A stretch of 63,828 bases of DNA, filler included, from Sphacelaria rigidula (lineage: Eukaryota), in assembly GCA_964200075.2 (NCBI GenBank). It is 3 parts of 3 records of this genome, joined end to end, with 100 filler letters (N's around TTAATTAATTAA, not from the genome) between each part and the next. Parts side by side here need not be neighbours in the genome. Positions count along the whole stretch, not along the records: positions 1 to 21,222 come from CAXNAA020000452.1; 2 more parts are not named here. One strand, written 5' to 3'. Below the pieces are notes generated by a model. The model searched no databases. It had not been told where the DNA came from and worked only from the letters and a program-made list of their open reading frames with translations. This document shows, piece by piece, positions 2,245 to 52,100 of this stretch; position 1 is the first letter of the stretch, and the number at the start of each line of letters is the position of its first letter. The position numbers and the translations under genes are program-made.

Positions 2245-2592
2245 GCCCGGTGGCTCAGTTGGTAATGTCGACTCCTTCCGACGGTTGGGTCGTGGGTTTG
2301 ATTCTCGGAGCAACCTGATTTTTTTCTCACACAAAAACAGTGGAGAGCGACTATGTCGTGGATACATAAAGTTCGACTTGACAGTCGATGAGGGAAAGGG
2401 ACTGCTGAACCCCTCTCGCGATAAAAAAAAAAGAGGCAAGCACCGCAGAAGTAGAGTGGGGTGCTAAAAACAAATTAAAAATAAAATTCCTGTGTTGATC
2501 TTCCTCCTGTGTGATCCCGGCTGGTACGCCCACATATACCGAAAGGTATAGACTGGCGTCCAGAATGGATGGGACCGCAACACACACACACA
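2245..2592 (+). mobile_element. tRNA-derived SINE, near full length
   Basis: Pol III A-box tggctcagttgg and B-box-like ggtttgattctc, a conserved body (aaggcaagcaccgcagaag; cccacatataccgaaagg) and a (CA)n tail. Homologous to 62684-63045 and 54655-55000. Confidence 0.85.
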
Positions 2593-2713
2593 ATAAACAC
2601 TGTCCAGGGTGTGGAATATAGCAAGAAAAAGTCGCAGAAATCAAATCGCAAAAAACCGGTAAGTCGAACTTTTGCCGGAGCAGAAACCATGTTCACTTGG
2701 TGAAAATGGAATG

Positions 2714-3179
2714 AGGTTGTACGACGAAATGAGGTTCAAGCCCGAACCAGTGCTTTTCCCAAGCTTTCAGCTATGGTGCCCAATGACGTTCTTGTCGGCC
2801 TAATGCCCCTCGATCGCGTTGATACTTTTTCAGCGCATTTCACAGACTCTGTGAGCTTACAGCGCTGACCACAACCGAGGTTTCCTTTGACCTCACTCCC
2901 ACAAAAAATAGGGGACAAGGACGGTTTAGGTCAGCGCTGTAAAATCACAGTCGGTGAAATGCGCTGAAACGTATCTACGGGATCGAGGGGGGCAAAACAA
3001 ATATAAGGGACAATTACGGTTCAGGTCAGCAACGTCAATCACAGAGTCGGCAAAATGCGCTGAAAACGTATCTACGCGACCGAGGGGCGTTAGGCCGACA
3101 AAAACGTCATTGGGCAACATAGCTGCAAGCATGGGGAAAGCGCTGGTTGGGGCTTGAACCTCATTTCATCGTCCAACCT
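2714..3179. mobile_element. MITE with ~140-bp terminal inverted repeats
   Basis: aggttgtacgacgaaatgaggttcaagccc pairs with gggcttgaacctcatttcatcgtccaacct. ORF-track peptides 2736..2918(-) and 2954..3157(+) are mirror copies. Confidence 0.8.
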
Positions 3180-3509
3180 ACCCGGGAGGGATGGGTTGAT
3201 CCCTTGAGACCACGGATTCGTTCCGAGAAAGGGGAGGGGTCCACAGAGCGATAAATGAAAAAATGAAATAAATACTAATGATAGATGCAAATAACCTTAT
3301 TTAATAGAATTGTCTGTTCGATGATGCGTGAGCGATTACTTGGTATTCTCGTCTGCCCCACCCGTCATCCAACAGAGCAGCACCACAGGGCCCGGACTAA
3401 CCGAAACGTTCATGTATCGTAGTCGTACAAACCCGCACAAACCCGACGAAATGTCGCACCAAGCCGACGTCAGTTGGCAAAACGGGCGTGCACGAATGGA
3501 CCCGTCAAG

Positions 3510-6137
3510 CTACTTATTTTGCCCGCTGGATACCACCACGGATACGAGACCAGAAGGCGCAGACACCCCTAACTCTGACTTTACGTTGTCACTCTCCTTC
3601 ACAGACATCACATCAGCCGTCGATGGCGCACAAAATGCCACTTCCGCCGGCGCTACTCCACGTAGCCGCTTGGCGCTTCTCGTTCCACTGGAGTTCTTGC
3701 TACCGCAGCCCGCGTCTTTGATGCTGCTAGGATTGCCGTTGGCCACATTACCATACAGACTGGATCGTGCAGCAGCCAGTTCGTTGCTTGTCATCCCTTC
3801 ACAAACACGCGCGGCGGGGAGAGTCATCTCCATCTTCACTTCCATGCACCTCGCGGCCCTATCCGACGAAGCCCCATCTGCTGCCGCAGCGCCGGCGGGC
3901 TGTCCCGAGGCGGTCGGCGGCGAGGTCGTGGAGTCTATATCGCCTTGACTAGCACGACTGGTGCAAGAACTGCATCGGTTCTCAACGCTGTGATAACCGG
4001 TGCTGGCGTTGCGGCCGGCACCCGACGTATTGCTGGGCATTTTACCATCCTTCCTGCCGCGGGTGGTTGTTACTCCACTGACCATGCCAGCCAGAGCGTG
4101 TGTGGCACAGAAGGCCGCCTTCCCGCTACCTGCTACATCGAATGACGGCGATGTAGAGCAGCCCTCCTCGCCGCACCTTTTGCGTGTTGCACTGATCACG
4201 CCAGCATGAGCGTGCATGGCGCAGAACTCCGCCTTCCCGCTATCCGCCGAACCAAACGACGGCCGTGTAGGGCAGCCCTCCTCGCCGCACCTCTTGTTAT
4301 TCACATCGACCACGCCAACCCGAGCGTGCGGGGCGCAGAGCTCCGCCTCTCCGCCATCCGCTGCACCGAATGATGGTACCATGGAGCAGCCAACCTCGCC
4401 GCACCTCTTATTCATCACATCGGCCACGTCAGCCCGAGCGTGCGTGCCGCACAACTCCGCCATCCCGCGGCCCTCTACACCAAATGACGGCGTCGTGGAG
4501 CAGCCCTCCTCGCCGCACCTCTTGTTTCTCACATCAACCATGCCGGCCGGCGCGTGTGTGACGCAAAACTCCACCTTCTTGCCACCTACCACACCAAACG
4601 ATGCCGATGTGAAGCAGTTGTCGTCGCCGCACCTCCTGCTCATCACATCGACCATGCCAGCCCGAGCGTGCGTGGCGCAGAACTCCGCCTTCCCACTACC
4701 CGCTATGCCGAAAGACGGCCTTTTGGAGCAACTATCCTCGCCGCACCTTTTGTTTTTCAAACAGACCATGCCAGCTCGAGCGTGTTTGGCGCAGAACTCT
4801 GCCTTCCCGCTACCCGCTACACCGAATGACGGCCATGTGGAGCAGCCTTCCTCGCCGCAGATCTTGTTTCTCACCAAGACCATGCCAGCCCGACAGTGTG
4901 CCGCGCAGAACTTCGCCTCTTCGCTACCCGCTATGCCAAAAGATGGCGATGAGGAGCAACCTTCCTCGCCACACCTCGTGTCTGTCATAATTACCATGCC
5001 CGCCCGAGCGTGTGCGGCGCAGAACTCCGCCTTTCCACTTCCCGCTCCGCCAAATGACGGTATTTTGGAGCAACCATCTTGGCCGCAACTCTTGCTTTTC
5101 ACATAGATCATGCCAGCCCGAGCGTGTGTGGCGCAGAACTTCACCTTCCCGCCACCCGCTACACGGAATGACGGCCTCATGGGGCAGCCATTCTCGCCGC
5201 ACCTCTTGATTTTCACGTAGACCATGCCAGCCCGAGCGTGCCTAGCGCAAAACTCCTTCTTCCCGCTGCCCGCTTTACCGAATGACGGCCATGTGAAGCA
5301 GCCAACCTCACCGCACCTCCTGTTTCTCACAGTGACCATGCCAGCCCGAGCGTGCGTGGCGCAAAACTCCGCCTTCTTGCTACCCGGCACACCATATGAC
5401 GGATATTTGGAGCAGCCCTCCTCGTCGCAGCTCTTCTGACTGACACCAACCATGCCAGCCCGTGCGTGTGTGGCGCAGAACTGTGCTTTCTTGCTACCGG
5501 CTATGCCAAATGATGGCGATGTCAAGCAGCCATCTTCGCCGCACCTGCCACGTCTTACATGGACCATACCAGCCCACGCGTGTTTGGCGCAAAACTCCGC
5601 GTTTTTGCTACCCGCTTTACCGAATGACGGCAGCGTGGAGCAGCCCTTTTCGCCGCATCTTCTGCATTTCACAGCGACCATGCCAGCCCGAGCGTGTGTG
5701 GCGCAGAACTCCGCCTTCCCGCTTCCCCGTACACCGACTGACGGCCATGTGGAACAGCCCTCCTCGCTGCACCTCTTGCCTGTCACAATGATCATGCCAG
5801 CCCGAGCGTGTTTGGCGCAGAGCTCTGCCTTTTTGCTACCCGCAACGCCAAATGATGCCGATGTGAAGCAGCCCTCCTCGCCGCAAATCTTGTTTCTCAC
5901 AAAGACCATGCCAGCCCGAGCGTGTGTGGCGCAGAACTCCACCTTTTTGGTACCCGCTACGCCAAATGCTGGCGATGTGGAGCAACCCTCCTCGCCGCAC
6001 CTCTTGCCTGTCACCATGACCATGCCAGCCCAACCGTGTGCGGCGCAAAACTCCGCCTTCCCACTACCCGCTACGCCAAATGACGGCCTTTTAGAGCAAC
6101 CATCCTCGCCGCACCTCTTGTTTTTCACATAAACCAT
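3510..6137 (-). CDS. EsV-1-7 repeat (Cys-rich C-X4-C-X16-C-X2-H) domain protein, about 875 aa, 18 full tandem repeats plus a low-complexity C-terminal tail
   Basis: Long uninterrupted ORF (track 3510..6170). The first in-frame ATG is at 6137 (MVYVKNKRC). It holds 18 copies of a 38-aa unit such as KRCGEDGCSKRPSFGVAGSGKAEFCAAHGWAGMVMVTG, whose Cys/His spacing matches the EsV-1-7 motif of brown algae and Ectocarpus virus EsV-1. The start codon is uncertain. Confidence 0.9.
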   Translation of the reverse strand: MVYVKNKRCGEDGCSKRPSFGVAGSGKAEFCAAHGWAGMVMVTGKRCGEEGCSTSPAFGVAGTKKVEFCATHARAGMVFVRNKICGEEGCFTSASFGVAGSKKAELCAKHARAGMIIVTGKRCSEEGCSTWPSVGVRGSGKAEFCATHARAGMVAVKCRRCGEKGCSTLPSFGKAGSKNAEFCAKHAWAGMVHVRRGRCGEDGCLTSPSFGIAGSKKAQFCATHARAGMVGVSQKSCDEEGCSKYPSYGVPGSKKAEFCATHARAGMVTVRNRRCGEVGCFTWPSFGKAGSGKKEFCARHARAGMVYVKIKRCGENGCPMRPSFRVAGGGKVKFCATHARAGMIYVKSKSCGQDGCSKIPSFGGAGSGKAEFCAAHARAGMVIMTDTRCGEEGCSSSPSFGIAGSEEAKFCAAHCRAGMVLVRNKICGEEGCSTWPSFGVAGSGKAEFCAKHARAGMVCLKNKRCGEDSCSKRPSFGIAGSGKAEFCATHARAGMVDVMSRRCGDDNCFTSASFGVVGGKKVEFCVTHAPAGMVDVRNKRCGEEGCSTTPSFGVEGRGMAELCGTHARADVADVMNKRCGEVGCSMVPSFGAADGGEAELCAPHARVGVVDVNNKRCGEEGCPTRPSFGSADSGKAEFCAMHAHAGVISATRKRCGEEGCSTSPSFDVAGSGKAAFCATHALAGMVSGVTTTRGRKDGKMPSNTSGAGRNASTGYHSVENRCSSCTSRASQGDIDSTTSPPTASGQPAGAAAADGASSDRAARCMEVKMEMTLPAARVCEGMTSNELAAARSSLYGNVANGNPSSIKDAGCGSKNSSGTRSAKRLRGVAPAEVAFCAPSTADVMSVKESDNVKSELGVSAPSGLVSVVVSSGQNK

Positions 6138-6190
6138 GCCAGCCCAAGCGTGTGTGTCGCAGAACTCCACCTTGCTACCCGTTACGCTGT
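4078..6190 (-). repeat. Coding tandem repeat, 114-bp unit x18 plus a partial unit
   Basis: Recurrent + strand motifs accatgccagcccgagcgtg and tcctcgccgcacctc at 114-bp spacing. Confidence 0.95.
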
Positions 6191-8218
6191 GCCCTCGTCA
6201 GGAAATCCTTGCGGGCATACAGGTTGGGGGTTTCCTTCACGGCTGTGCTGAGAGCACAACATAAGCCGTGGGAGGCCCACTGCCGCTACAATCCACACCG
6301 CCACACACCTGAGCGTTAACCAGCTCAGCAATAGCCTGGAATAATTGATCAACAAGTTCAACGAAAAGAAGGGTCAAGAGGACAACTGAATCGATCCCCA
6401 TCACAATTGTCATGTCGCAAACAGATTGGTGAACAGTGGTGTTCTCACAACGAAACCGCGGTCCAACAGGCAGAGGGGAACCGGCGTCATCTTTTGTGAG
6501 AAGCCGAGAGCTGCTCCCGTTACTGCACAACGACGGGGCGAGTGTACAATGGGACCAGAGCTTGACTCTGAAGGTCCTCACAACTGTCGTGTTCAGGTCA
6601 CACGTATGGTGTCTGTGCTCCCACGATAAGCCCAACGGACGACCAGGGAGGACTTCGGAGAATGTTTTCTCGCATCTTAGAGTTAGAGTGGAAGGAGAAA
6701 AAGCCAGTAGCGGTGCACGTCTCACGACGATTCTTCTTCAGGGCGAATTTATCAAAGTGAGAGTCTCGTTTGGACCTCTCCACTCTGAAACTCATGTGCC
6801 CCTGCAAAATTAATACGTGGCGCAACGAAAAAAACGCTCCCAACTTCACCACCACGGCCACAGCCAATTCACGATCGAATAACTCCAACGAGCAAAGTGG
6901 AACACCCATCATAACTGTTGTATCATAATGGACCATCCACGAAGTAGCAACACTTGGCATCGCATCAAAGGGCCTCTCTGACGCCGCCATGCTATCAGTA
7001 TTCGCTTAGTTTTTGAGTGAAATTTGAATGCTGGGAGGGTACATGATGTTGCCTTGGGTGCAGTTCTCCACTTCTGCCAGCCTTAGCTCAGTAGTCTACA
7101 GCGCACAAGCAGCACGACACTTGGCTGTAATGCCTTTTTCTCACACGCCACGGCGTCTTGCACCAGCGTTATGGGTAGCATGTTACAAAGTCATTACAGT
7201 GGGTCCTTGTTGTTTGGGAGTGCTGCGTACTGTACTATACTAGTGTACAACTGACTGTACGGTATCGTTGTACTTCACCGTACCGCAATGTACTGTTGTA
7301 GGGCTCTGCATTGCGCTGTCTGTACTCAACACTGCACAGCACTACAGCATTGCAGTGCCCTATAGTATACCGTAGTGCAGTGAAGTAGTGCGCAAGTGCA
7401 GTGAGACGTAGTGTACGGCACGGTAGGGTGCCGCAAGGTACAAAACAACAGAGCCGCGCAGCTCTCATTGTACAGTAAGTGCTGTGCTGACCTATGCATC
7501 TTCGAACTGGACGCTGGTCAATCACACATTTGGCGGGGCAACCTGCGGCCAACCACTGCGACGAGAGAAAAGGCCAATGGCCTAGGAAAGGAGGGTATAC
7601 CTTCTCGTTTATTGCTCAACAAAGGTACGAAAAAGGACCAGACGCGCGAAAAAAGCAAAACACGCCATTTAGACCGTCTTCGCTCCGAAATTTTCACGCA
7701 CATCACTCGGGGGGGGGAGGGGAAGGGCCTCGGCACCCGGGCTTCGAAAAATAAACGGGGAAAAACAACATATTACTTGCTCTATACGGCCACGCGAAAA
7801 CGCACGTCTCGCCTCCAGAAACCGCTTCCCCTTTCGAGGCCGAAAATTCACCAGGTATACCTGATTCAGGAATTCTTCTTCAATCGTACCTCATCTGGGC
7901 CACCGATCGGCCGAGAAGGTACCAGTGCTAGGCCATCTCTTTCTACAATGTACCTGATGCGGCACATCGCTAGCGAGGGAGTCTACGCGCTAAGTTGAAC
8001 CACGGCGCCCACACATCGGGCTCTTTTCCCGCTCATTTGCCGTTCACGGACGCCTCAACGGCCACCCCTCTCTCTCCCCAGAAATGGTCGCCGAGTCTTC
8101 CCGCGTTGTTTTTGTGTGATGCCGGGGGTTGTGGAACAGCGTATTGTTGCGATCTCAGGATTGGTGTCAGGGTCAAGCTAGGCTCTTTCGTCACCAACGC
8201 AAGGTTGTCGCATCAAGG

Positions 8219-8534
8219 GGACCTAAAGAAATGTACGTAAATAATGGTACCATCGAGATGCCGCCAATCCCTATCCTGACCAAGACATATCAAGCACCCT
8301 CGGGCAAGGGGGTTCAGAGTGTTTCTAAGGCACAGTGTGCGTCGCCAGAGCTTAAATCGACGCATTAGAGCCGATTTTGGGCCAAAACACGTTCTGGGCG
8401 AGCTGGGTCTACTGCTCACCATTGCTTACCCGCCTTACCCGCCCCAAATCATGGATTTGTTTTCAGAACTTTTTTCAGTCTGAAATCAGGTAATATCGAG
8501 TACCAACCATTGCTCACGTACATTTCTTCAGGTC
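8219..8534. mobile_element. MITE nested in the foldback element
   Basis: TIRs gacctaaagaaatgtacgt / acgtacatttcttcaggtc, flanked by the imperfect direct repeat ggttgtcgcatca / ggtggtcgcatca. Confidence 0.6.
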
Positions 8535-8938
8535 TGGTGGTCGCATCATACATCGACAGTTGGTCCAAGCAACGGATTCAGTACTGGCCGTCACGCATAT
8601 AGAAATAGGGACATAACAATAACATCGTTCAGCACTACAGTATCTTCTGCGGACATATTCCGAACTTCTCGCTGGCCGTTGGTGATTGCTGTGCACGGCC
8701 CCGATAGACGTGATGAGTGTGTTCCGCGAGTGTTTTCGTTGGGCGCACGTTACTCTGTACTGTAGTGCTGAACGCTATTACTGTTGTGTCCCTATTCCTA
8801 TACGCGTGACAGCTGGTACTGTATCCGTTGCTTGAACCAACCATCGATCATGCGACAACCGCCCGCGAGTTACGGAAGATCTTAGCTTGACCCTGACACC
8901 AGCTCCGAGATCGCAACAGAACGCTGTTCCGCAACCCC

Positions 8939-9188
8939 GACACTTTCTGCGATAGCCCCCCCCCCAAACCAGCCAAAAGTGTCACGAAAAAAATGGGCAT
9001 ACAGCGCCTGATGCTTGGGTCCAGGCTACATGAAGCGCCTCATATTGGCAATACTGGCTGGAACGAACCCAGTCGTGAGAATTCCCAGCTGCTCGTTGTG
9101 CTCGGCTTTTCCCATTTCGATTTACGTGAAAAAATTGCCTCCCAAAACCATACACTTTTGGGGGGGGGGGCTATCGCAGAAAGTGTCC
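8939..9188. mobile_element. MITE nested in the right arm of the foldback element
   Basis: TIRs gacactttctgcgatagcccccc / ggggggctatcgcagaaagtgtc. This segment is absent from the left arm. Confidence 0.75.
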
Positions 9189-21222: not shown

Positions 21223-21322
21223 NNNNNNNNNNNNNNNNNNNNNNNNNNNNNNNNNNNNNNNNNNNNTTAATTAATTAANNNNNNNNNNNNNNNNNNNNNN
21301 NNNNNNNNNNNNNNNNNNNNNN
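21223..21322. other. Artificial assembly gap (44 N + TTAATTAATTAA + 44 N)
   Basis: Fixed 100-nt spacer containing a six-frame stop linker. Confidence 0.97.
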
Positions 21323-28900: not shown

Positions 28901-31900
28901 CTTCGTAAGGGCGCAATCGATAGCTTCTAGGTCGTCCCTGGTCAAGAAAACGACCAGTCAATGGAGGACCATGACTCACGATCAAAAGGGGGGAAAAAGG
29001 GGGGGACACCTACTTTTTTTCTTATCGTCTCAAAGCAGTCAAGGTTGCGCCACTCTGTCTGCATCTAGATACCAGATGATGGACGTCAGGTAAACGACGC
29101 GTTCCTTCCCTCGCTGTTTCAAACCTTCAGGCATCAGTCTCTGCTCACTGATCGATGTTGCTTGGCTTGCCATTGTCGATAGCAGAAGCTCCGGTGCTTG
29201 TTCGTTACGAAACTTATTTAGTTGTTCATTTATTTGGAGGAGGGGGGGGAGGGGGGGCAGCGACTTGAAGCAAGCGCCCATACCTGAGCATATGTCAACC
29301 AATCAAGACAAGTTGTTGGTCAAGGAAGGATCATAAAGGGTGGGCAATACTTCGGGGTGAAACGAGCGCAATTAATGATTCCCAGTGTATACCTGGCTTC
29401 CAACGGTGACAATCTGTCGTCGACTGTGTGTGTACGTAATGGTGATCCTTCGGCTGATCAGATGGATGTAATCATCGAGGTTGGATTCCATAAACTCCAA
29501 TTCAACCTCAGCCGTCGAAAAATCTCGGAGACTTCATAGACACCGCGTGAAGAGTCAAGCCGAACGGCATAGTCCGCTCATGCTAGACATGGTACTACAG
29601 TGCTTGTATCGCGATCATGTTTTCATTCCAAGCAGAATAACGGTGTATCCCAAGTAAACAACAGCAATCCTACTGAGCGGTCTTCCGCGGATTCAGCATT
29701 CAGCGTTTTGCGTGTGCCATTCGCTTTTTTTCTTTTATCCTCTTCGTCTACTCTTGTTTAAATGTTTTACATTTAGGATTTCTTTATTTTCTTCTGCGAG
29801 TGTTTTCATTTGGTTTTATCTCGGGTACGTCGATCATGTAGATAATGACCACGGCTGGATCATGACTGGGGGATAAATTGAAGTGCGACAAGTCAATCAA
29901 ATCAAGTTGGGGGATTGTACACATGAAGCATGAGATGGGTTGCACACGCCAACCCCATGCTAAATGTGGTACGAAGATGACTGCATGACGGGTACATGTC
30001 ATTGCATTTGTGGCATTTTACGCCATGTCATTGAGATGGCAGGCGGCTGTTGGGAAGATGGATGAAACGCTGGCACGGCGCGGGGCAACCAGGAAACCTG
30101 CCTGCACGACAAATGTATGCTCCAGTTAATGCTAATATCCTCGTGGACTTACCCCGTGATTGGCGAGCGCACAAGCTGCTTCCAGACAATCGACGGCAGG
30201 TCTAGGGCTAGGGGCTGCCTCGATCGAATCGCCACCCCCATCAACCGCCCAAGGAACGATAGCATCTCTGCATAACAAGCTCTGCTACTGCCCCCGCCGC
30301 CACCGCTGCTGCTGCTGCCGATCACGGCCGGATTTGGCACCCATTTCTCTCGATTGATGCCCACATCGTTGACCGCATTAGGACAGCGGACTAGAAGCGG
30401 CAGGGCGTCTGACTGGAGTTCGGCGCAGTAAACAGCAAAGGACTCGCGATACGGACCTTGAGCACACGGGGGTGGGGCGCGCGGTGTGGGGGAAGTAATA
30501 GTGATTGCGCAAAGCGGGAAAGGGGGTAGGGCACGGAATAACAGGAACGAGTGAGGGATGGTGAGGGGCTTGCTGAGATCCACGCACCTGCGTTCAAACA
30601 TTTGACCGCACCGAGTTTGTGAACCCTCTCATGTTGAAGCTGCCAATATTAGATAACGCCAATAATTGTACACCCACCGAGAAACGAAAAATATGAGCCA
30701 CGAGATATAAAGATGACGAGCGAGGACAACCCCTTCTTCCGTTCGGGAATATGCAAATCGTGTCGACATCACAGAAAAAGTAAACACACGTACCCCCGGC
30801 ATCATGCGCATGCTCCCCAACAAACACCGTGGTGTACAGTGCCTCTCCCGGTCGCAAACGAAAAGCCTCAATCGGCGCCTCGCGCAGCGCACGGAACGCC
30901 TGACCGAACAGCGTCTTCCTCTCTCCCTCTTCCGCGTCGTTTGATCCGATATTCCCTGTGCTGTGCATTCTTCGTGCCGCCCGGCCACGGTTCAGCTTAA
31001 GCTCCAACGGCAGGCTGCCGGAACCATCATGAGTCGGTGCATCTCTCGCCGTCCTCGCCAACTCGGCATGCCACAGCTCTAGCTTCAGCGGCGAGAAAAT
31101 GAGATGACGGCAACGGGACAGGAGGGCGGCCAGCGACCACGGTTGCTCTCCTTGAGAGAAATCAACATAAGGGAGCGCCTGCGATACACCATGGTTTAGC
31201 CGCTGCAACAGATGAAATCGTGCCGACAAGGTCGAGAGCTCGTTGAGACGTTGCTGCCACTCACCAAGTCCACCGCCGCAGTCATCTCGGCGTCTCGGGC
31301 GCGGCAACGGCAGGGCCGCTACAAGAGAACCAGTCGCGTCTACGGGCGTAGGCGGGATCTGCGCACCAGCGCTAGGGTTACCGAGGACGCCTATATGCCC
31401 TACCGACGCGTGCGACAGCAGATGAACAGGCCCGCGGGGCCGCTTTTTCACTTGTTCGCAGATGAGGTACGGATGGTTTGCGTAGCGTCCCCGCTCGCTG
31501 ATCCACCCTGCCGGCGTCGTCGCCGTCGCGATGCAGCGGTAGCGGACGACCGGGTCGATCCCGTTCCGGTCCGGCACTCCCGGTGACGTGTAGATCACCG
31601 CTCTGTCGTAGGGTACCACGGTACCGCAGGGGATACGACCGACGATGGCGTCCGTGTCTATGCTCATTCCCGACCGCACCGTTGCGCCGTGCGCTTGACT
31701 TACCACCTTCAGCCACCCAGACGGCCCGTCCCGTGGTGCAGTGCGCACGCCAAACGCAACCCTGCCTCGACCCCAGCTATCTCGGCACCGCGCGCGGACG
31801 GTAGCCGCCCGCCGCCGCCCGCTGAGCTCCCGGCAGCTGAACATGACATCCTCACCCGCGTCTATCACCGAGAAGGCAACTTCCATGCCTTCATCCACAC

Positions 31901-34900
31901 CTCCAAGGTAGGCCACAGCTCTTGGTTCTACGATATTCATGCAAGCATCCCAAGTCGTCGTCCTTTCGCCCGAGACCGTGGGGCAAGCCCGCGCGACGGC
32001 GAGGAGGCCATCTGCCGCACGGAAACCAAACACAAGCCCATCCATCAGCAAAGGAAGGTCATTCTCCATGAATGTTGATTCGGAATTCCTAGCGGTGTCG
32101 ACGGGAGTCCTACTACCAGCATGATGGGGAGCACTCGAAGTTGCTGCTGCTGCTGCTCCTGCTGCTCCTGCTGCGACGGTGGCGGCAGCAGCGACGAAGG
32201 TGTCAGCTTCCCTCTGCCGCTCGGAGCGGCGCTCGTCCGCGTCGATATTGGCGACAGAAGAAGGCACGATCCTTGTGTAACCGCTTGTCCTTGTGGTGAT
32301 CGTAAGCGTATCTGTCACCAGCCCGATTTTCCAATTGCCAGCAACCATCAACGACCTTTTTTCTCGTCCATCCGCTTCCCCAACACCGCCGCCACTGGCT
32401 CCAGTGAAGTCTGCAGCACTTATTAGTAGAGCGTCACTATCTCCTTGTAGCGGCACAGCAGAGAATGGTGATGGTAACTCTCTGCCGGAACCTCCCGCCG
32501 CCGTCACCCTACCCCCTCGGCTTAGCGGCTCCCAAAACTCCTCCAGAGCTACACTCTGGTCTGATGTCGTCGCCAACCTGCGGACTTCACCCCCAGCCGT
32601 CTCTCCAATGCAGTAGGCCCCCACGGAAAACCCATCGACAAGGCACCGGTCTGCCTCGTATAGTTCAATACCAAGCCCGGATCGTTCGCGGTATATACCG
32701 CGGCTTTCGGAGGTTGATAGCGCCAGCCAGCTCGAACGGCACCCCGGCCAGCCCACTTGTCGCCAGCCGGCAACTTCGGCCTCCGCCGCCATCGTACCTT
32801 CTTCGTCCTCCGACTGCCCCGGGACAGTGGCCTCTCGCGGCGGGAGAAGTTGGGCTATTTGACCAGGTGCAAGGCGCCACGACCCCGTCGCGGGAGAGAG
32901 CGGCAGGTCGTGCAACAATACACCGCCTGCCAGCGCGCTCGGAGCCACAGCGATCCATTCGTCGTTTCGCTCCTTCCACCTACCGTCCTCGTGGCCATCG
33001 GCACAACCGTGATCTACTCCGCTCTCTTTCCTCTCTTCCACACCACCTTGGGGTGACGGGGTCGCTGAGGGGAAGGTCTCCTCCGCCATTGAACGCTGGG
33101 TTGCGCCCGCGCCATGGAATATCGACGTACGCTCTATCGTAGACCCGCCCGGCGGTAGACCGGAGACGGATTGTAGTAACGGCCACGGTGCCAGGTCCAC
33201 GCGAGAAATTTTCATTGCCGCCCAATCACATGATAGAAGGGTCTCCTTCGACATACCCCGTCGCAACACCACAGCGTTGATACATCTGGAGTGATAGTGG
33301 CGCGGAATGTGGAACGTACTCGGGGTCATGATAGCGATGATGGGAGAACGGAAAGCATCAAGATGTCAGCAACCTGCAAGCACAGTGACAGCAAACAGTT
33401 TGATTTTCGACGCCGAACCGAACAAAGCATACATCCCGTAGTCCTGATATGCACGCGTTTGAGAGTCGCTCTGATGATATCGCCATCGAAGCAGTACCAT
33501 TCCTTGCCAAAACAAGCAAACAACCAGTGGCAATCAACACACTGCCGCAGTGGGTTTACCGGTTTCGGCCGAAAAACTCCGTCAACCTTCCCAGTTCATC
33601 TCGGTCCGACCGCCTAAAAGCCTCACACATGGGTCATACAGCCACCCTTGATACACCACAGTCGCCCCCTGATACCTGATTAGTTGGGCATTGACCGCGG
33701 GCGCTCGTGTCTGCTCTCCCCACATCAAAGACAAAAACTCCTTGAAGCGTTGTTGCAGCCACGGGTTCGAATCGCTTCCGATGCTCCTCGGGAACCGAGG
33801 AACCACCTTGGCACTGAAACCCCAAACGTTATGCTTTCCCATGAGTGGAGGCGCCAGCGGTACGCCCGCAGTTGCCTCGAACACGCCAAGGGCCCGGGCT
33901 GGGGGTAATCGTCTGTTGCCGCCCCCTCGATCGTTCTTGCCGTGCACTGAGCAAGCATCGGTTGCGCCCAAGACGTCGTTTGGCAGTCTTCGCAAGTCTC
34001 CATCGAGCTGGGCTGACGCGTCGAGCAACCATCGTCCAATGAGATCGGGCATGGTGGACGTCAAGCTCCCGTCTAGAAGGCCGTCGCTGGAAACATGAGG
34101 GAGGGGGGTGATGCAAGGCGCTCGTGATGTTAGCCGCTGCAGAATACGTGCCAGGTACCATTCTTTCATTGTATCAGTGGCCCCGGTGCTGTAAGATAGT
34201 CAGCATCGGACCTACTCTTGTTTGGTGGGAAACGACTCTTAAACCGTCACAAGGGATAACAGGTACGCATCTCTAGGTTCTGGCTATTTAGTGTTTCCTC
34301 TACATCAAAGCAATCCCATTCGTTTCTTGCGAGTATTTGCGTAGCGGGTTCTCAAATCCTGTGTTTCACGGCCGAAAAACCGTTTTTGGACCAACTGAGC
34401 TTAACGACGCGTTAAAATGAACGTTATTTTCCGCTGCATTCTACTAACAACACGGTCTTGGTGAAAACAATTATGGAACCGGTGGCTTCTGCACACGGTA
34501 CCGTCGGAGTATTTTTTACACGCGGCCCATATTGGAATAAATGCCCGCTCCTGCACAACCGTAACGGATACAAGTCGGGTTCTTGTGTACTCGCGTACAT
34601 AAAGCGGTGACAGAGGAAACACGACGCACCATCCTGGCGTTTCCTTACCGTTCCCCTCGCGCTCATGTGACAGTTCGAAACACGTGACGCTAAGCGTGCT
34701 TTGCACGCACAGTTTGAACGAGTCACGACGGGTCATCCCCTGTTGATTCGTCCTCGGGTCCGTACTGATTCGCGTGCAGTAATGCATATGCAGCGAGCGC
34801 AGTAAGCGTACATGGGTACATTCAAAAACTATTGACTCAAAAACGATGACTGTGGCGAAAAAATCAGTGGCGTAACCCCAGTTGCCCAATCGTATCAGAA

Positions 34901-42544: not shown

Positions 42545-42644
42545 NNNNNNNNNNNNNNNNNNNNNNNNNNNNNNNNNNNNNNNNNNNNTTAATTAATTAA
42601 NNNNNNNNNNNNNNNNNNNNNNNNNNNNNNNNNNNNNNNNNNNN
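42545..42644. other. Artificial assembly gap (44 N + TTAATTAATTAA + 44 N)
   Basis: Identical spacer design to 21223-21322. Confidence 0.97.
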
Positions 42645-43105: not shown

Positions 43106-46100
43106 CTGTAGAAAGGTGTGACCGTAGTGATACAATCCTTGTCCAGAGCGAGCTCTAGCGTGCTAAACCGGGCGTCCAGGACGATGCTATACTCCTGTGG
43201 TTATACGCAGAACGCGACGGGGCAACCGGGAACGCGAGTCAAAACGAGCTCCGCCCTTCTCTAGAGAACGAGAAAAAACAGTTGTGAAGATATGGAACGA
43301 GGCTAAGCAAAGACATCGGCTGGCGATTAACAAGCCTGAAGCCTGCAGTACCCATTCTCCTGGGGGTTATAGTGAGGCGAGGGCAGAGAGCGGTAGACTT
43401 GAGGTGAAGCACACCAGTGCAGACAGATTGCCGAAATAATAATTGATTTGTAGGAGATGGACGTCAATACCAGTGATCTGGGGTCCGCGACAGTGTGCAT
43501 TTTTCAGCTAGATACGAGCAGTGGAAAAAACTGCAGGCAAGAGCGTACTTGTGCAAACACCCTTGTGACTGCGAGAGCCTGGGATCTTCAGTGTAGGAGC
43601 CTCCGTGGGCACACGTCAGGCTACACATATTTGCACCGGCGTACAGCCACCAACAACGTTAATTTTGTGGGTAGCGACACGCTTGATAACTCGGTCACCG
43701 AAACAGGTATGTGCTGCCCATCACATAAAAACGAGGGGATGGCGGTGGAGCTGTACGGTGGGGTTGAGCGACGCGGTTCGATTTCGACTTCCATTGTGAT
43801 AAAAGTTAGCAACACTGAGGGACGGGGTCTACTCATGATCTTGCATGTTGTAGTCATATGACCGTTGAAGCCTCGCATCCCTGAGAAGCCGGGACGGAGC
43901 TCGCCGGGTTTTCGCCGTAACAGGCTCGGAAACAATTACCAAGCGCGAAGCGCCGTCATGTGTTCGGCGAGTGGCACGAAGGGTGCGCTGTATCCTGCTG
44001 ACATTGTTCGGACCGGAGCATACCAAGCATCTTGCATATGAATGACAGCCTCCAGGGAGTTGGTTCATTTTCTGGCATCACCACTTCACGGAAAGCCACG
44101 GGTTACACTGCCTCATGGGTGTCTCAACATCAAGACGCTACGTAGTACGATCCCCTTCGCTCCGGGTTGAAGTTCTTTACCGCGCACAAAATGATTTAAC
44201 TCGACCAATATCGTTGCGACCGCAAAAAAACACAAGCGAGAAAAAAAACGTAACCTGGTTGCCTAGCTTGTGCAGTTAGTGGCGTGTTTTACAGCGTCGT
44301 TGCCAACCGAAGCCAACCCTTCACAAGGGTGGGGGGGAGGGGGGGCGTGCGCGAGATCTTCTTTATGCGATTCAAAGATCGAGACAGTGAGGCCGATGGT
44401 CTAATGCTTTGAAACGACGCTATTCGCGGGACATCAATATTGCACGCACACAACACAACACAAACATCGTTCATCTATTTCTTAGTCCATTTGTAGGATA
44501 TTAGATCTGTACTGTACGGAGCAATTATGTCTAAGGTGTACCGAAGTCAGTATACGTAACCTATGGATGATGGCGCTATCATCTCGAAAGGCCGGAGCAA
44601 CGCAAGGAATGTGATACTCAAAGTGGGTACTCCCTGAGATGGAAATGAATAAATAAACACACCTATCTCGAGCACTGCGCAAGCAGGTGCTGTTCAACTG
44701 ATTTCCACACGCGAAACCACATACTGCATATATTGGCGGGTACCACCCAAGAAAAAGTGATTATTGGCCACAATGACTCGTGATATTGGGTGAGAGACGA
44801 CCGGCTTAAAGAAAAGCACACAAAAAACAAACAAGTTTGCTAGAAGGCATGAAATATATAACAAGTGTAGAGCCACCTGGTTCGTTTCAGCGACGGAATC
44901 GGGAGGAGGTCGGGGGCCGCCGCTTGTGGCCATCCAGTACGTGATGTGGATCAGCCCTCCGTGTGACGTTTTGTCTGGGATAGAACTTATCATATACCTG
45001 CCGGTGAAGGAGGAGCGAGGAGGGGGCGGAGAGGGGGGGGGGGGCGCGGGTGGCGTCAGTAGGCTGGTGAGCGCAACCGATTGAATATCACCGCACGTAC
45101 GGCGACTACGCGGAAGTGCTAAGGTTAATAACTTGTTGATGGGCAGTCTAATTTTCGCCAGGCTTCAGGAGGTAATGCACCCGGGCGTACTCATTCGTTG
45201 CTTGCCTTAGTCATTCGACCATAGACAACGCATCTCTCGAAACGGCGCAAATAAATATAGGAGGAGGGGGAGGCTCTGCGATTGGGAGGGGGATTCAAAG
45301 TGTATCTATGCTGTTCCGGTTTGGTCGATGTTTCGGTTCGCTTCATTTTTTTATGCCGATTCGATCCGCCTCAACGTTTCATGTTTTACATAGCTTCATA
45401 TTTTCGTGTCGGTTCTGTTCGCTTAAGTTCATGTTGATCCGGTTCGGTTTGATTATTCATGTTGATCCGGTTCGGTTTGATTGTTCATGTTGTTCTGGTC
45501 CGGCCAGTTTCCCATGTTTCGGTTCGCTTCGATTGTTGACGTTTCAGTTTGCTTACATGATTCATGTTGTCCCGGTTTAGCCAATATATCATGTTTCGGT
45601 TCGCTTTATATGTTTCTATAGTTCAGTCCGCTTCAATTTCAAATGTTGTTGCGGTTCGCTTCAAAGATATGTGCCGTTTGGGTTCGCTTCAACTCTTCAA
45701 GTTTGGGTTCGCTTCGAATTTCATTTCGTTCTGATTCGCTTCAATGTTTGACGTTCCGCTTCGCTTTTATTCATTATGTTCCGGTTCGATTCAATTCATT
45801 ATGTTCCAGCTCGGCCCATGTTTCGGCTAATAGTTCGGCCTATGTGTCGTTTCGCTCTAATTTCATGATGTTCCGGTTCGGTTCAATTCATGGTATCTTC
45901 CGGCTGGGTCCGGTTCGGCCCATATTTCCTTTCGATTTAATTTCATGTTGTTTCGTTTCGCTGCAATCTTCCACGTTTCGTTTCGCTTCAATCCATGATG
46001 TTCCGGTTCAGCCCATGTTTCCCCTCGCTTCAGTTTTATGATGTTTTGGTTTGGCCCATGTTTCCTTTCGCTTTAGTTTCATATTACGGTTCGCTTCAAT

Positions 46101-49100
46101 TTTTCAAGTTTCGTTTCGCTTCAATTCATGATGTTCCACTCCAATTCATCATGTTCTGGTTCGGCCCATATTTCCTTTCGCTTTCATTTTTTGTTATTCC
46201 GATTCGTCGCAATTCTTCACGTTTCGTTTCGGTTCAACTCATGGTCTTCCGGTTCGGCCCATGTTTCCCCTCGCTCTCATTGTATGTTGTTCCTGTTCGC
46301 TGCAATTTCTGACCTTGAATTCCAGCCCATGCTTCGTTTCGCTGTGATATCATGTTTCCATTCGCTGAAATTTTTCACGTTTCGTTTCGCTTCAATTCAT
46401 GATATTCCGGTTCGGCCCATGTTTCCTTTGGCTTTAATTTCATCTTGTTTCGATTCGCCGCAATTTTTCACATTTCGGTTCGCTTCAATTCATGGTGTTC
46501 TGGTTGGGCCCATGTTTCCTTTCGCTTCATTTTCATGTTTCGGTTTGCTGTAATTTTTCACGTTTCGTTCCACTTCGATTCATGATGTTCCGGTTCAGCT
46601 TATGCTTCCTTTTGCTTGAATTTCATCTTGTTTCGATTCGCTGCAATTTTTCACATTTCGGTTCGCTTTAATTCATGGTGTTCTGGTTGGGCCCATATTT
46701 CCTTTCGCTTAATTTTCATGTTTCGGCTTGCTGTAAATTTTCACGTTTCGTTCCACTTCGATTCATGATGTTCCGGTTCAGCTTATGCTTTCTTTTGCTT
46801 GAATTTCATCTTGTTTCGATTCGCTGCAGTTTTTCACGTTTCGTTTCGCTTCGATACATGATGTTCCGGTTCGGCCCATGTTTCCTTACACTTGAATCTT
46901 ATTTTTTTTCGATTCGTTGCAATTTTCCACGTTTCAGTCCGCTTCAGTTCGTGATGTTCCCGTTCGCCCCATGTTTCCTTCCGCTTTGATTTCATATTGT
47001 TTCGGGTTGCCGCAATTTGTCGTTTCGCTTCAATTCATGATGTTCCGCTTCGATTTCATGTTGTTTCGGGTTGCCGCAATTTTTCACGTTTTATTTCGCT
47101 TCAATTCATTATGTTCCGCTTCGATTTCATGTTGTTTCGATTCGCTGCAATTTTTCACGTTTTGTTTCGCTTGAATTCATGATGTTCCAGTTCGGCCCAT
47201 CTTTCCATTCGCTTGAAATTCATGTCGTTTCTGTTCGCTGCATTTTTTCACGATTCGTTTGGCTTCAGTGTGTGATGTTCTGGTTCGGCCTATGTTTCGT
47301 TTCGCTTTGATTCCATGATATTTCGATTCGCTGAAACTTTTTACTTTCGTTTCGCTTCAGTGTGTGATGTTCTGGTTCGGCCCATGTTTCGTTTCGCTAC
47401 AGTTTCATGTTATTTCGATTCCCTGCAACTTTTCACTTTCGTTTCGCTTCAGTGTGTGATGTTCTGGTTCGGCCTATGTTTCGTTTCGCTACAAGTTCAT
47501 GTTGTTTCGACTCGCTGCAATTTTTCACGTTTCGTTTAGCTTAAATTCTATGGTGTTTCGGTTCGCTTCAATTCATTATGTTCCCGTTCGCCCCATGTTT
47601 CGTTTCGCTAAAATTTTATGCTGCTTAGGTTCGCTGCAATTTTTCACGATTCGTTTTACTTCAACTCATGATGTTCCGGTTCAGTCCATGTTTCGTTTCG
47701 CTGCAATTTCTGACGTTTCGTTTCGCTTCAATTCATGTTTCGGTTCGCCCCATGTTTCCTTTCGCTCTAATTCCATGTTGTTTCGGGTGCCGCATTTTTT
47801 CACGTTTCGTTTCGATTCAATTCATGATATTCCGCTTAATTTCCTATTGTTTCGATTCGCTGCAATTTTTCACGTTTTGATTCGTTTCAACTCATGATGT
47901 TCCGGTTCGCCCCATGTTTCGTTTCGCTTCAATTCCATGTTGTTTCGATTCGGTTCGCCCCATGTTTCGTTTCGCGTCAAGTCCATGTTGTTTCGATCCG
48001 CTTCAATTTTGCACGTTCCGTTTGGCTTGAACTCATGATGTTCCCGTTCACCCCATGTTTTCTTCCGCTCTAATTCCATACTATTTCGGGTGCCGCATTT
48101 TTTTACGTTTCGTTTTGCTTCAATTCATGATGTTCCGCTTTAATTTCCATGTTGTTTCGAATCGCTGCAATTTTTCACGTTTCGTTTCGCTTGAACTCAT
48201 TATGTTCCCATTCGCCCCATGTTTGCGTCCGCTCTAATTCCATGTTGTTTCGGGTGGCGCATTTTCTCACGTTTCGTTTCGCTTCAATTCATGATGTTCC
48301 GCTCTAATTTCTTGTTGTTTCGATTCGCTGCAACTTTTTACGTCTCGATTCGCTTTAATTCATGATGTTCCTGTTTGGCCCATGATTTCTTTCGCTTGAA
48401 TTCTATATTGGTTCAATTCGCTTCAGTTCATGATGTTCAGGTTCGGCCCACGTTTCCTTTCGCTTCAATTCCATGTTGTTAAGATTCGCTGCAAATTTTC
48501 ACGTTTTGTTTAGCTTCAATATATGATGATCCCGTTCGCCCCCATGTTTCCTTTCGCTCTACTTCCATGTTGTTTCGAGTTGCCGCATTTTTTAACGTTT
48601 CGTTTTGCTTCAATCCATGATGTTACGCTTAAATTTGCTGTTATTCCGATTCGCTGATATTTTTCACGCTTCGCTCTCGCTTCATTTCATGATGTTCCGG
48701 TTCGGTCTATGTTTCGTTTCGCTTGAACTCCATGATGTTTCGATTCGCTACAACTTTTCACGTTTTGTTTCGCTTCAATTCCATGTTGTCACGATTCGCT
48801 GCAATTTGTCACGTTTTGTTTCGCTTCAATTCATCATGTTCCCGTTCGCCCCCATGTTTTCTTTCGCTAATTCCATGTTGTTTCGGGTTGCCGTATTTTT
48901 CAACGTTTCGTTTCGCTTCAATTTATGATGTTCCGCTTTAATTTGCTGTTGTTCCGATTCGCTGCAATTTTACACATTTCGTTTCGCTTCAGTTCATGAT
49001 GTTCTAGTTCGGCCCATGTTTTCTTTCGCTTCAATTCCATGTTGTTTCGATTCGCTGCAACTTTTCACGTTTCTTCTTCACTTGAACTCATGGTGTTCCG

Positions 49101-52100
49101 GTTCGGCCCATGTTTCGTTTCGCTTCATTTTCATGTTGTTACGATTCGCTGTAATTTTTTCACGTTTCGTTTCACTTCAATTCCATTTTGTTTCGATTCC
49201 CTGCAATTTGTTCACGTTTCGTTTCGCTTCAATTTCATGTTGTTCCGATTCGCTGCAATATTTCACGTTCTGTTTCGCTTCAATTCATGATATTCCCATT
49301 CGCCCCGTGTTTCGCTTCGCTTCCATTTCATGTTGTTTCGATTCGCTGCAATTTTGCAAGTTTCTTTTCACTTGAACTCATGATGTTCCGGTTCGGCCCA
49401 TGTTTCCTTCCGCTACAATTTCATGTTGTTCCGATTCGCTGCAATTTTTCACGTTTCGGTTCGCTTCAATTCATGATGTTCCGGTTCGGCCTATGTTTTG
49501 TTACGCTTCATTCCCATGTTCTTCCGATTCGCTGCAATTTGTTCACATTCGGTTAGCTTCAATTTCCTGTTTCGATTCGCTGCAATATTTCACGTTCCGT
49601 TTCGCTTCAATTCATGATGTTCCCATTCGCCCCGTGTTTCGTTTCGCTTCCATTTTATGTTGCTTCGGTTTCGCTGCAATTTTTCACGCTTCTTTTCACT
49701 CCAACTCATGATGTTCCGGTTCGGCCCATGTTTCTTTCCGCTACAATTTCATGTTCTTCCGATTCGCTGCAATTTGTTCACATTCGGTTAGCTTCAATTC
49801 CTGTTTCGATTCGCTGCAATATTTCACGTTCCGTTTCGCTTCAATTCATGATGTTCCCATTCGCCCCGTGTTTCGTTTCGCTTCCATTTTATGTTGCTTC
49901 AGGTTCGCTGCAATTTTTCACGTTTCTTCTCACTTGAACTCATGATGTTCCGGTTCGGCCCATGTTTCCTTCCGCTCCAATTTCATGTTGTTCCGATTCG
50001 CTGCAATTTTTCACGTTCTGTTTCGCTTCAATTCATGATGTTCCGGTTCGGCCTATGTTTTGTTACGCTTCATTCCCGCATTGTTCCGATTCGCTGCAAT
50101 TTTTTCACATTCGGTTAGCTTCAATTCATAAGTTCCCGTTCGCCCCATGTTTCCTTTCGCTTCAATTCCATGTTGCTTCGGTTTCGCTGCAATTTTTCAC
50201 GTCTCGTTTCGCTTCAATTCATGATATTCTGGTTCGGTCCATGTTTCATTTCGCTTTAATTATATGCTTGTTCCATTCGCTGCATTTTTTCTTACGTTTC
50301 GTTTCGCTTTAATTCATCATGTTCCGGTTCGGCCATGTTTCGTTTCAATTTCGTCTTGTCTCGATTCGATGCATTTTTTCACATTTCGTTTCGCTTCACT
50401 TCATGATGTTTCGGTTCGGTCCATGTTTCCTTTCGCTTTTATTTCATGTTGTTTTGATTCACTGGAATTTTTCACGTTTCGTTTCGCTTTAATTCATCAT
50501 GTTCCAGTTCGGTCCATGTTTCCCTTCGCTTTTATTTCATGTTGTTTCGAGTCGCTGCAATTTCTTCACGTTTCGTTTGCTCCAATGCATGATGTTCTGG
50601 TTCGGCCCATGTTTTATTTCGCTTTTATTTTCATGTTTTAACTTCCAATGTTTCGGTTCGCTCCTCATTCGACTTTCAATCTTAAGCGCTGTTTCGGTTA
50701 GCTCCAATTTTTCAGGTTACCTCGGTTAGCTCACATACATAGCTGTTACGGTCCGGCGTACTTTTTCGTTCGCTTCAACTTCTCATGTCTGGATCGGCCT
50801 GGTGCGGTGGATGAAAAGAACCCGAGCGTTTCCGCACTGGTGGTCGAGCTTCCTCGTCACCTCCCGCCCTCCCCCTCCGCACGCACTCTCGTACCTGAAG
50901 GGCGAATCATCCGGTCTGGCCCTATCCTCCAGCGTCAAAGACTGTAAGTGCACCGTCAGGAGCATGTCTGCCGTGCGTGTAGACAGGTCGACAGCCGTAC
51001 CCCGAATCTCCATCAAAAGACCGCTATCCTTGTGCACCTGCGACGCGGGAATCTCCTCCAGTTCGACTAGCAGCAACGAGACCGTTGGAAGCTGTACCTT
51101 GATCTGATTCAACGTCATCAAGAGACAAGGGTGGGATTTAGGGGGCAGGGAACAAAAGGGAAGCCGCGGTATCATCAGGCCGGGATCAGGCGAGATAAAA
51201 GACATGGAACACGTTGACAGGCTATAGAAGAAATCACGGGTCACGAGTGCACAATCGAATCAACCACATACGAATTCTCGAGCATGCTGTTCCCACGTTT
51301 TTCGCTGCACCATGCTCAAGCGCGTATAGATTAGTCTTCGATTGTTGGGTGACCAGGAGCAATCAGTGTTCTTGTTGATGTTTGTTTTACGAGAAGGGAG
51401 AGACGACGGGATTCAAGTGAATACTTTGACTTCAATATGCGGCTACTCGTGTTACTACCTTTCCTCCGAATGGCGGGGTTTTCTTCGACTGCTTGAATGT
51501 AAAATGGAAATCAGGTCACGTGAACATTCCCGTAAATAAACCTCGAGACGCATTCATGAATTCCACTCCATGGACTTTCTTCACACCTCGCGTAAATCAA
51601 GCTCTGACACGTTTCCATATCTCAATCCATGTACTTCCTTCACACAATCGCACAGTTGTAGATACATAAATCACAGCATGTCCACAATATATGTTTGGAA
51701 AAGAAAAGAAGCGATAGTAATAATCGCCGTGACAGTTTGTGGTCCGCCAGGACCAATTACCCGGCGTGGTGTTTCTCATTTCTTCATAAGTGCTCGTTCT
51801 CTTTCCATATTCCTGACCAGAGTGAGAGAGGTATTCAAATTTCACTTGTTTCTACGATGCACAGCGTTCGCGACATTCTGGCCACCTCTCCCTTCTCTTT
51901 CCGAGATGTGCCTTCCTCACCCCCCTGTCGAATACGAGAACAAGCATCTGGACTTCGCAACAGCTGGAGGGAAGAAAACCGCCAGTTTCTCGTTTCAACA
52001 CGCACCCCTAGCTTCCGTCGAAGCGCGAGCTTTGACGACCCCCTTCATTTCACCCCACGAACTCTTTTCCCATCCGAGAAGGCACAGTGCACCGCTGATT

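Follow-up and report, generated by a model that had tools for sequence, protein, structure and literature searches.

Here we analysed a 63.8-kb stretch of DNA from Sphacelaria rigidula (63,828 nucleotides, filler included; assembly GCA_964200075.2), below called the window, which carries a gene for a long tandem-repeat protein of the EsV-1-7 family. On the minus strand an open-reading-frame listing gave a frame from 3510 to 6170, i.e. 886 codons with no stop inside. The frame lies in a stretch of 60% G+C; its flanks have about 50% G+C. The first ATG (6137-6135) is residue 12 of the frame. Counted from this predicted 5' end the coding sequence occupies 3510..6137 (minus strand) and consists of 875 codons plus the stop at 3510-3512. 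An entry of the ESM Atlas holds the same protein from residue 12 onward, with residue 12 given as M. The 11 in-frame codons upstream of the ATG (6138..6170, minus strand), themselves preceded by an in-frame stop, resemble the second half of a repeat (..EFCDTHAWAG). They may be the remnant of a 19th repeat or a part of an upstream exon.

Residues 11-694 (4089..6140, minus strand) constitute an array of 18 tandem EsV-1-7 units. In the register used here a unit has 38 residues with putative metal ligands at C10, C15, C32 and H35, and each unit has the arrangement C10-x4-C15-x16-C32-x2-H35. The four ligand residues were invariant in 18 of 18 units, i.e. all 72 were intact. The pattern C-x4-C-x3-[PA] was matched 18 times in the frame, and all 17 spacings between matches were 38 residues. 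Tandem Repeats Finder reported a tandem repeat over 4076-6173, with a period of 114, 18.4 copies, 75% matches and 0% indels. Pfam PF19114 (EsV_1_7_cys) was found in 18 stretches with an E of 6.5e-230 and 743 bits compared to a cut-off of 25. A Pfam scan of the protein at E ≤ 0.01 returned no other family. This bore out the membership in the EsV-1-7 family and the 18 scaffold-keeping repeats of the original prediction; the 18 triplets which it had listed after the second cysteine were read exactly as given. Of its interval, 4078..6137, the upper limit coincides with the first ATG, whereas 4078 is located just beyond the last repeat. The array is strongly basic (net charge +37, pI, isoelectric point, 9.05). 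All frames in the rest of the window contained no further EsV-1-7 unit; two isolated pattern matches were taken as chance.

Variable positions and selection between repeats

Per-position entropy was computed over the 18 aligned 38-residue units. The ligands had an entropy of 0, and another 18 positions did not exceed 1 bit; positions 4, 6, 7, 13, 18, 23 and 34 lay at 1.8-3.4 bits. Thus, variation is localised at fixed positions as predicted. Most variable was position 4 in the linker, the x of G-M-V-x-V, with 3.35 bits and 12 residue types. The original prediction had not singled it out. Position 18, the third residue of the triplet after the second cysteine, followed with 2.60 bits and 8 residue types, then positions 7 (2.50 bits), 6 (2.32 bits), 34 (the x of C-A-x-H; 2.06 bits), 23 (1.95 bits) and 13 (1.83 bits). 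That all three triplet residues vary freely was correct for position 18 only; position 16, the first triplet residue, is S in 12/18 units (1.40 bits) and position 17, the second, is T in 11/18 (1.50 bits). Similarly, the basic patch before the first cysteine, which had been considered variable, does vary at positions 6 and 7, yet K8 is kept in 13 and R9 in 14 of the 18 units.

Pairwise counts between repeats yielded proportions of synonymous and nonsynonymous differences, pS and pN, of 0.374 and 0.211, respectively. Divided by the overall pS, pN was 1.74 at position 4, 1.64 at position 18, 1.35 at position 7 and 1.28 at position 23; it was below 1 at positions 16 and 17. A per-site codon likelihood model was then applied to a maximum-likelihood tree of the 18 units, with likelihoods summed over internal states. 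The overall ratio of nonsynonymous to synonymous rates (omega) between repeats was 0.62-0.65, and at most scaffold positions the nonsynonymous rate beta was about 0.15-0.5. When the synonymous rate was set to its mean over the array, omega was 5.6 at position 4 (p 1.3e-5), 2.8 at position 18 (p 0.0067, uncorrected for 38 sites), 2.1 at position 7 (p 0.034) and 2.0 at position 23 (p 0.053). Positions 16 and 17, at 1.17 and 0.73, were not significant. On a star tree the order of positions by omega was unchanged. When each site was allowed its own synonymous rate alpha, beta significantly exceeded alpha at position 4 only (5.30 versus 0.30, p 8e-4, about 0.03 corrected for 38 sites). Position 6 gave a p of 0.06; at position 18 beta was 2.6 and alpha 1.1 (p 0.43). 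The codons of position 4 have T as third base in 15/18 units, with many combinations at the first two bases; those of position 18 have G as third base in 15/18. An omega above 1 was therefore robustly observed at linker position 4 and is suggestive at position 18. Variation above the neutral level, as had been expected for the variable residues, was found at position 4 in both tests; it did not extend to positions 16 and 17, which are near neutral.

The 886 codons without a stop, the 72 intact ligands and the pS between repeats confirmed that the array is more than a product of chance. The gene is intact and under constraint; its EsV-1-7 array is unusually long and uniform, with variation that is restricted to a few positions and is partly adaptive. 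A constant scaffold with hypervariable residues at fixed positions, a feature of modular-reader-like arrays, was apparent from the entropies and from the omega above 1 at position 4.

Relatives of the array, the C-terminal tail and the predicted fold

A scan of 1.84 billion representative proteins returned 5957 proteins at E ≤ 0.001 and 830 at E ≤ 1e-30. The best full-length identity in a word-index search was 44%; among named proteins, those of Sphacelaria rigidula and Ascophyllum nodosum are nearest. By similarity, the gene classifies as a large member of the already known, very large EsV-1-7 family of brown algae (PF19114 / IPR043822), with which it shares the repeat and the C-x4-C-x16-C-x2-H ligands. 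It differs in having 18 exact-period units, where none of 182 closest homologues exceeds 11 units of exact spacing, and a far more uniform scaffold. For comparison we used 865 exact-spacing units from 169 of these 182 homologues. The variable positions are common to the window protein and the family (Spearman 0.68 between entropies, first 150 units). Position 4 again is exceptional. It is N or D in 569/865 family units, whereas the window array has left this state in 14/18 units; D is kept in units 14-17 alone. At position 4 the relative entropy was 2.66 as against a family mean of 1.17 (standard deviation 0.43), a value reached by 1.1% of 89 proteins with at least six units.

The closest relative found, P0044 (343 residues), is 61% identical to residues 544-883 and has four repeats and the same tail. 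Its printed sequence, read by eye, has substitutions at 4/16 ligand positions (C to Y, S and R; H to N), as in a copy that is in decay; decay would accordingly occur in its subfamily. Another relative, P0029, named Ectocarpus sp. in the source, carries the retrotransposon gag-type Pfam PF14223 in a precomputed annotation besides its EsV-1-7 repeats; this is a further apparent link between the repeat and mobile elements. Seven of 91 EsV-1-7 homologues also matched PF24906, a WRKY19-type zinc finger (best E 9.8e-9), and the two motifs are therefore probably related. The window protein did not match PF24906 at E ≤ 0.01. Among the papers listed in a literature search, none was a functional study of the PF24906 finger.

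In the literature the EsV-1-7 domain is called a possible new zinc finger and the protein 'of unknown function', as far as the text of these sources was accessible. Within the same limit, the statement of the original prediction that the ligand of the family is not established holds in five sources (10.64898/2026.04.27.720984; 10.1101/2024.02.19.579948; PMC12993054; PMC12477816; PMC7457493). The accessible parts of the EsV-1-7 literature, a scope to which the founding paper (Macaisne et al., 2017) does not belong, report no nuclease fusion, per-position selection or ligand. The gene may be listed in a supplementary table such as Table S17 of the 2024 preprint. IMMEDIATE UPRIGHT from Ectocarpus is described with five repeats and a unique N-terminal domain (10.1101/2024.02.19.579948, accessible text). 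The window frame, in contrast, starts in the array with an in-frame stop 11 codons above the ATG and shows no N-terminal domain; an upstream exon is possible. According to the portion available of another source, the EsV-1-7 genes of Ectocarpus all lack a further Pfam domain, and a viral origin is argued for (10.64898/2026.04.27.720984). The available text of PMC12477816 describes TcMar-2_Ec32, a Tc1/mariner transposase of Ectocarpus that carries an EsV-1-7 domain at its N-terminus. In this protein the domain is joined to an enzyme which has to locate DNA. TcMar-2_Ec32, which we compared by its description, is a transposon gene, whereas no transposase was found in or beside the window frame.

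A fusion of a different kind was frequent among the relatives. In 88 of the 182 closest homologues the repeats are accompanied by a C-terminal domain with the motif RPD..E.DE..H..R..R.NPD. An alignment of 32 such domains has 12 invariant columns; Pfam has no family for the domain. In total, 737 short proteins carry it, and 56 of 120 listed ones have at least one EsV-1-7 unit. Language-model features placed the domain close to PvuRts1I-like restriction-nuclease clusters (scores 0.91 and 0.90) and to DUF559 (0.88; Atlas). Sub-threshold Pfam matches were to Hjc in 4/32 (best E 0.012), DUF2726 (0.0023), DUF559 (0.012), HSDR_N, SfsA and Vsr, families which we take to belong to one superfamily. PHROG matches were 'homing endonuclease' in 6/32 (best 3.5e-5) and 'intron encoded nuclease' in 2/32, and the NCBIfam model Hjc was hit in 2/32, below its cut-off. 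With hhalign the RPDF motif was aligned to E. coli Vsr at a probability of 18.7% and an E of 0.0013. These weak signals, sub-threshold matches and features, suggest that the viral C-terminal domain is a restriction-endonuclease-like nuclease, possibly of the PD-(D/E)XK superfamily.

At least 550 stretches in IMG/VR encode this domain. Eighty were kept, 76 of them with the whole motif in one frame, and at 60 of these 76 loci 1-12 EsV-1-7 units precede the domain in the same frame. Many of the contigs bear names of giant-virus metagenome-assembled genomes. The giant-virus proteins with an array and the nuclease-like domain, which came from metagenomic and IMG/VR sequences, have the same repeat family and period as the window protein and are among its closest relatives, i.e. 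the 88 of 182. Yet their arrays are shorter and their repeats more diverged, and the window protein has a different tail without the nuclease-like domain. The nuclease-like motif pattern was absent from all 12 named brown-algal or EsV-1 homologues. By eye, EsV-1-115 had seemed to end in a diverged copy of the domain; this was not supported, as hhalign aligned the repeat region at a probability of 9%.

The viral genes permitted a comparison of orthologous repeats. Four equal-length pairs, 83-97% identical and with 20 units, were used. At positions 4, 6, 7, 18, 23 and 34 pN was 0.042 and the overall pS 0.30, which gives a ratio of 0.14. At scaffold positions pN/pS was 0.14 as well, and in the rest of the proteins it was 0.17. 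At the protein level, 11/148 variable-position and 54/796 scaffold residues differed in seven viral pairs (Fisher p 0.73). Hence in this small sample of viral relatives, which does not include the gene itself, orthologues hold their repeat-specific residues fixed. This fits repeats which each have a job of their own and does not fit free sites. Two IMG/VR array-nuclease genes, L028 and L029, showed no aligned difference and had lengths of 442 and 480, exactly 38 residues apart. This appears to be the gain or loss of one repeat between near-identical genes.

The C-terminal tail of the window protein (residues 695-886; 3513..4088, minus strand) comprises 192 residues. It has no repeats, is rich in Ser, Ala and Gly, and falls into no Pfam family. 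Other EsV-1-7 proteins have homologous tails. BLASTP against 42 homologues gave E values of 4e-22 (P0003), 4e-20 (P0004) and 3e-14 (P0007), all three named Sphacelaria rigidula; the tails of P0044, P0051, P0052, P0065, P0098 and P0148 are homologous, too. The tail contains MEVKMEMT (3822..3845, minus strand), a hydrophobic-K-x-E motif present as a strict pattern in 6/10 aligned tails; the other four have, by eye, a looser hydrophobic-K-x-E at the same place of the alignment. The basic motif KRLR (3660..3671, minus strand) occurs in 6/10 tails, and 2/10 have KRKR instead. A second hydrophobic-K-x-E/D pattern match, NVKSELGVSAPS, is located near the C-terminus (3552..3587, minus strand). The pattern [VILMF]K.[ED]L[GDA]V[SA] was found in 10/304 stored proteins including that of the window, and most of these ten also share the other hydrophobic-K-x-E motif and KRLR or KRKR. 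As judged from these shared motifs the tail defines a subfamily of EsV-1-7 proteins (10/304). KRLR is a possible nuclear localisation signal; presumably, KRLR follows the pattern of such signals and the hydrophobic-K-x-E motifs that of the SUMOylation consensus.

The fold of the repeats was predicted with AlphaFold2, the models carrying no metal. Repeats 7-12 yielded a mean predicted local distance difference test (pLDDT) of 80.0 and a predicted template modelling score (pTM) of 0.38 (24-row alignment), repeats 8-9 a pLDDT of 86.4 and a pTM of 0.52 (91-row alignment). In the predicted unit, positions 2-4 and 21-23 would form strands, position 31 a bridge and positions 33-35 a three-residue helix. 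Locally the models are confident; because pTM is low the relative placement of the modules is not predicted. The Pfam model of PF19114 extends from the first cysteine to position 6 of the next unit. Therefore, the hypervariable position 4 belongs to the module of the preceding ligands. A phmmer search of the protein against solved structures had no match. Among predicted viral structures (BFVD), 17 matched the two-repeat model at E ≤ 0.001, with E down to 1e-7; these include EsV-1-7 itself (template modelling score 0.75) and EsV-1-115. Three of the 17 bear the depositor name 'Endonuclease' and one 'DNA primase'. An ESM Atlas feature search without PF19114 gave no usable match for the repeats. 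Mutual information from 607 two-unit segments was discarded as a contact map; it was dominated by same-position correlation of neighbouring repeats.

Proposed nucleic-acid recognition and competing readings

What might such an array do? Tentatively, and rating it somewhat short of an even chance, we propose that it binds nucleic acid, most likely DNA, in the nucleus, that its diversified residues set the preferences of the modules and that the tail is regulatory. Each module would fold around one zinc ion into a small strand-rich knot, and the modules would be strung flexibly. Lys and Arg before the first cysteine and the conserved scaffold would provide general affinity. The few diversified residues of a module, i.e. 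position 4, the third triplet residue and positions 6, 7, 23 and 34, would confer its own preference, with position 4 sitting on the strand after the histidine. The tail with KRLR and two hydrophobic-K-x-E motifs could serve localisation or regulatory functions. The main argument for DNA recognition is the company of the array in viruses and transposons, which is indirect support. The array appears to be of the type which in giant-virus genes is followed by a nuclease-like domain. On this view the algal proteins would have retained a DNA-targeting module but not the nuclease. Because of the viral nuclease-like fusions, the transposase fusion and the purifying selection between viral orthologues, DNA recognition is plausible, yet unproven.

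Several observations weigh against this proposal. The window tail has no RPD or NPD motif and no nuclease-like domain, and it aligns with tails of the algal type; consequently the link to DNA is by association. The nuclease-like domain itself reached no curated cut-off in Pfam or NCBIfam, and its profile retrieved from Protein Data Bank sequences only a thioredoxin (E 0.34) and a TetR regulator (E 2.3), both taken as chance. The pTM of 0.38 over six repeats indicates no regular superhelix. Foldseek found nothing at E ≤ 0.001 for either model among solved structures, and VIA-align over 48,161 chains had its best Z values, 3.1 and 3.4, with RING domains, which bind proteins. Two of three triplet positions, 16 and 17, evolve as if neutral. 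In the selection tests, repeats stand in for lineages, the tree is poorly resolved and gene conversion is left out of account, and the viral orthologue test rests on 12.5 nonsynonymous changes. Lastly, the accessible family literature holds no binding, localisation or expression data for EsV-1-7 members.

The original prediction had likened the array to C2H2 zinc fingers, TALEs and PPRs. C2H2 arrays such as those of KRAB-ZNF proteins are tandem zinc modules with a constant scaffold, few diversifying positions, repeat turnover and flexible linkers. In outline the window protein is alike, with tandem Cys/His modules and few diversifying positions. However, Pfam shows no homology, a differently spaced Cys3-His set takes the place of the C2H2 ligands, the module is of 38 instead of 28 residues and is predicted to be strand-rich with a three-residue helix, and DNA binding here is a proposal. 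TALEs and PPRs are metal-free helical repeats with two specificity positions and an experimentally solved code. With them the window protein shares just the logic of a repeated scaffold with fixed specificity positions, of which about seven vary here. Thus, the likeness held as a shared logic of constant scaffold and variable positions; it did not hold as homology, PF19114 being the only Pfam family found. A recognition code at the level of single repeats is speculative. More far-reaching, and in our estimate rather unlikely, is the idea that EsV-1-7 arrays form a further natural class of modular DNA recognition which originated as the targeting portion of homing-endonuclease-like giant-virus genes and was domesticated in brown algae, without the nuclease, into a large regulator family. 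Each 38-residue module would then read a short piece of DNA via positions 4, 18, 23 and 34, and the 18-module protein would be among the longest readers.

The strongest rival, which we likewise consider rather improbable, is a protein-binding scaffold of the LIM, RING or B-box kind in which variable surface residues tune the partners of an adaptor in signalling or development. Indeed, RING and B-box domains (Z 2.2-3.4) are the sole structural neighbours, all weak; the non-significant Foldseek matches include LIM, PHD and B-box rows, and a Pfam scan of the protein showed no nucleic-acid-binding family. A constant core with a variable surface is generic to protein-binding repeats. Yet these structural matches are far below the level given as meaningful in the notes of the tool, the array is strongly basic, and the recurrent nuclease-like and transposase fusions fit DNA targeting better.

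Quite unlikely is a post-transcriptional role by binding of RNA, comparable to CCCH, RanBP2-type or CCHC knuckle fingers. The module may resemble RNA-binding knuckles. Its Cys3-His ligand set, the basic array and the residues F, W, Y, R or L at position 18 or 16 beside the zinc knuckle in 11/18 units would agree with this. However, no RNA-binding CCCH family in Pfam has the spacing C-x4-C-x16-C-x2-H, and the enzymatic fusion partners of the array in relatives work on DNA, as judged from the nuclease-like domain, the transposase and the names 'Endonuclease' and 'DNA primase'.

Equally doubtful is a young array from unequal crossing-over whose unconstrained surface sites vary without specific meaning and which has a dosage-type or little function: omega is near 1 at positions 6, 13, 16, 17 and 34, the same positions vary across the family (Spearman 0.68), the nearest relative P0044 has lost 4/16 ligands (by eye) and the viral pair 38 residues apart indicates easy shifts in repeat number, yet position 4 is beyond neutral in both tests and has left the N/D state in 14/18 units with its third codon base kept, viral orthologues show scaffold-like purifying selection at the repeat-variable positions, and the 72 ligands and the long frame are intact.

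The gene family defined by the EsV-1-7 domain is among the largest in brown algae and includes a developmental regulator. Since its 18 scaffolds are near-identical and the modules differ at few positions, the array is a favourable test object, and the giant-virus nuclease-like fusions offer many natural pairs of an array and a likely DNA target. If DNA recognition is true, it would explain a family of thousands of genes, connect selfish elements of giant viruses with regulators of a multicellular lineage and perhaps provide a new scaffold for designed DNA binding. Otherwise, the gene is an ordinary representative of a family already known.

Sequencing runs and the surrounding window

The frame was compared with contigs of public sequencing runs from one organism in two studies. 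Contigs of four runs covered it. The 700-base piece 3825-4524 had zero differences in three runs, and a 699-base piece likewise in the fourth. At 5430 (repeat 7, position 9) three of four runs have T in place of the window's G, which changes the coding-strand codon AGC (Ser) to AGA (Arg); Arg is the usual residue of the family at this position. Differences at 5286 and 5394 are on third codon bases. Joints in the contigs were considered as splicing and this was rejected: they are also present in DNA-like runs, contain additional letters, and the lengths they skip are no multiples of 114. They are read as assembly paths through paralogous repeats. No AG adjoins the loose contig end at 6315. The bins 6406-7490 had no depth in two runs guessed to be RNA (X1, X2) and were covered in two others (X5, X6), which is uninformative on expression and on the 5' end.

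At 2500-3367 and 7700-9000 the summed word depth in X5 and X6, which is not a copy number, was 100-fold to several thousand-fold that of the frame. Because the depth of the flanks by far exceeds that of the frame, the gene seems to sit between highly repeated sequences. On the minus strand at 30594-33329 there is a 911-codon open frame of about 59% G+C for which no Pfam family was found at E ≤ 0.01. Its last part resembles, by eye, what we take to be the lead-in to a HECT ubiquitin-ligase domain. A satellite of about 4.7 kb occupies 45909-50637, with units of about 93 bases and multiples thereof, an AT skew of about -0.5 and about 42% G+C. The segments 21223-21322 and 42545-42644 each consist of two 44-base runs of N with 12 bases between them.

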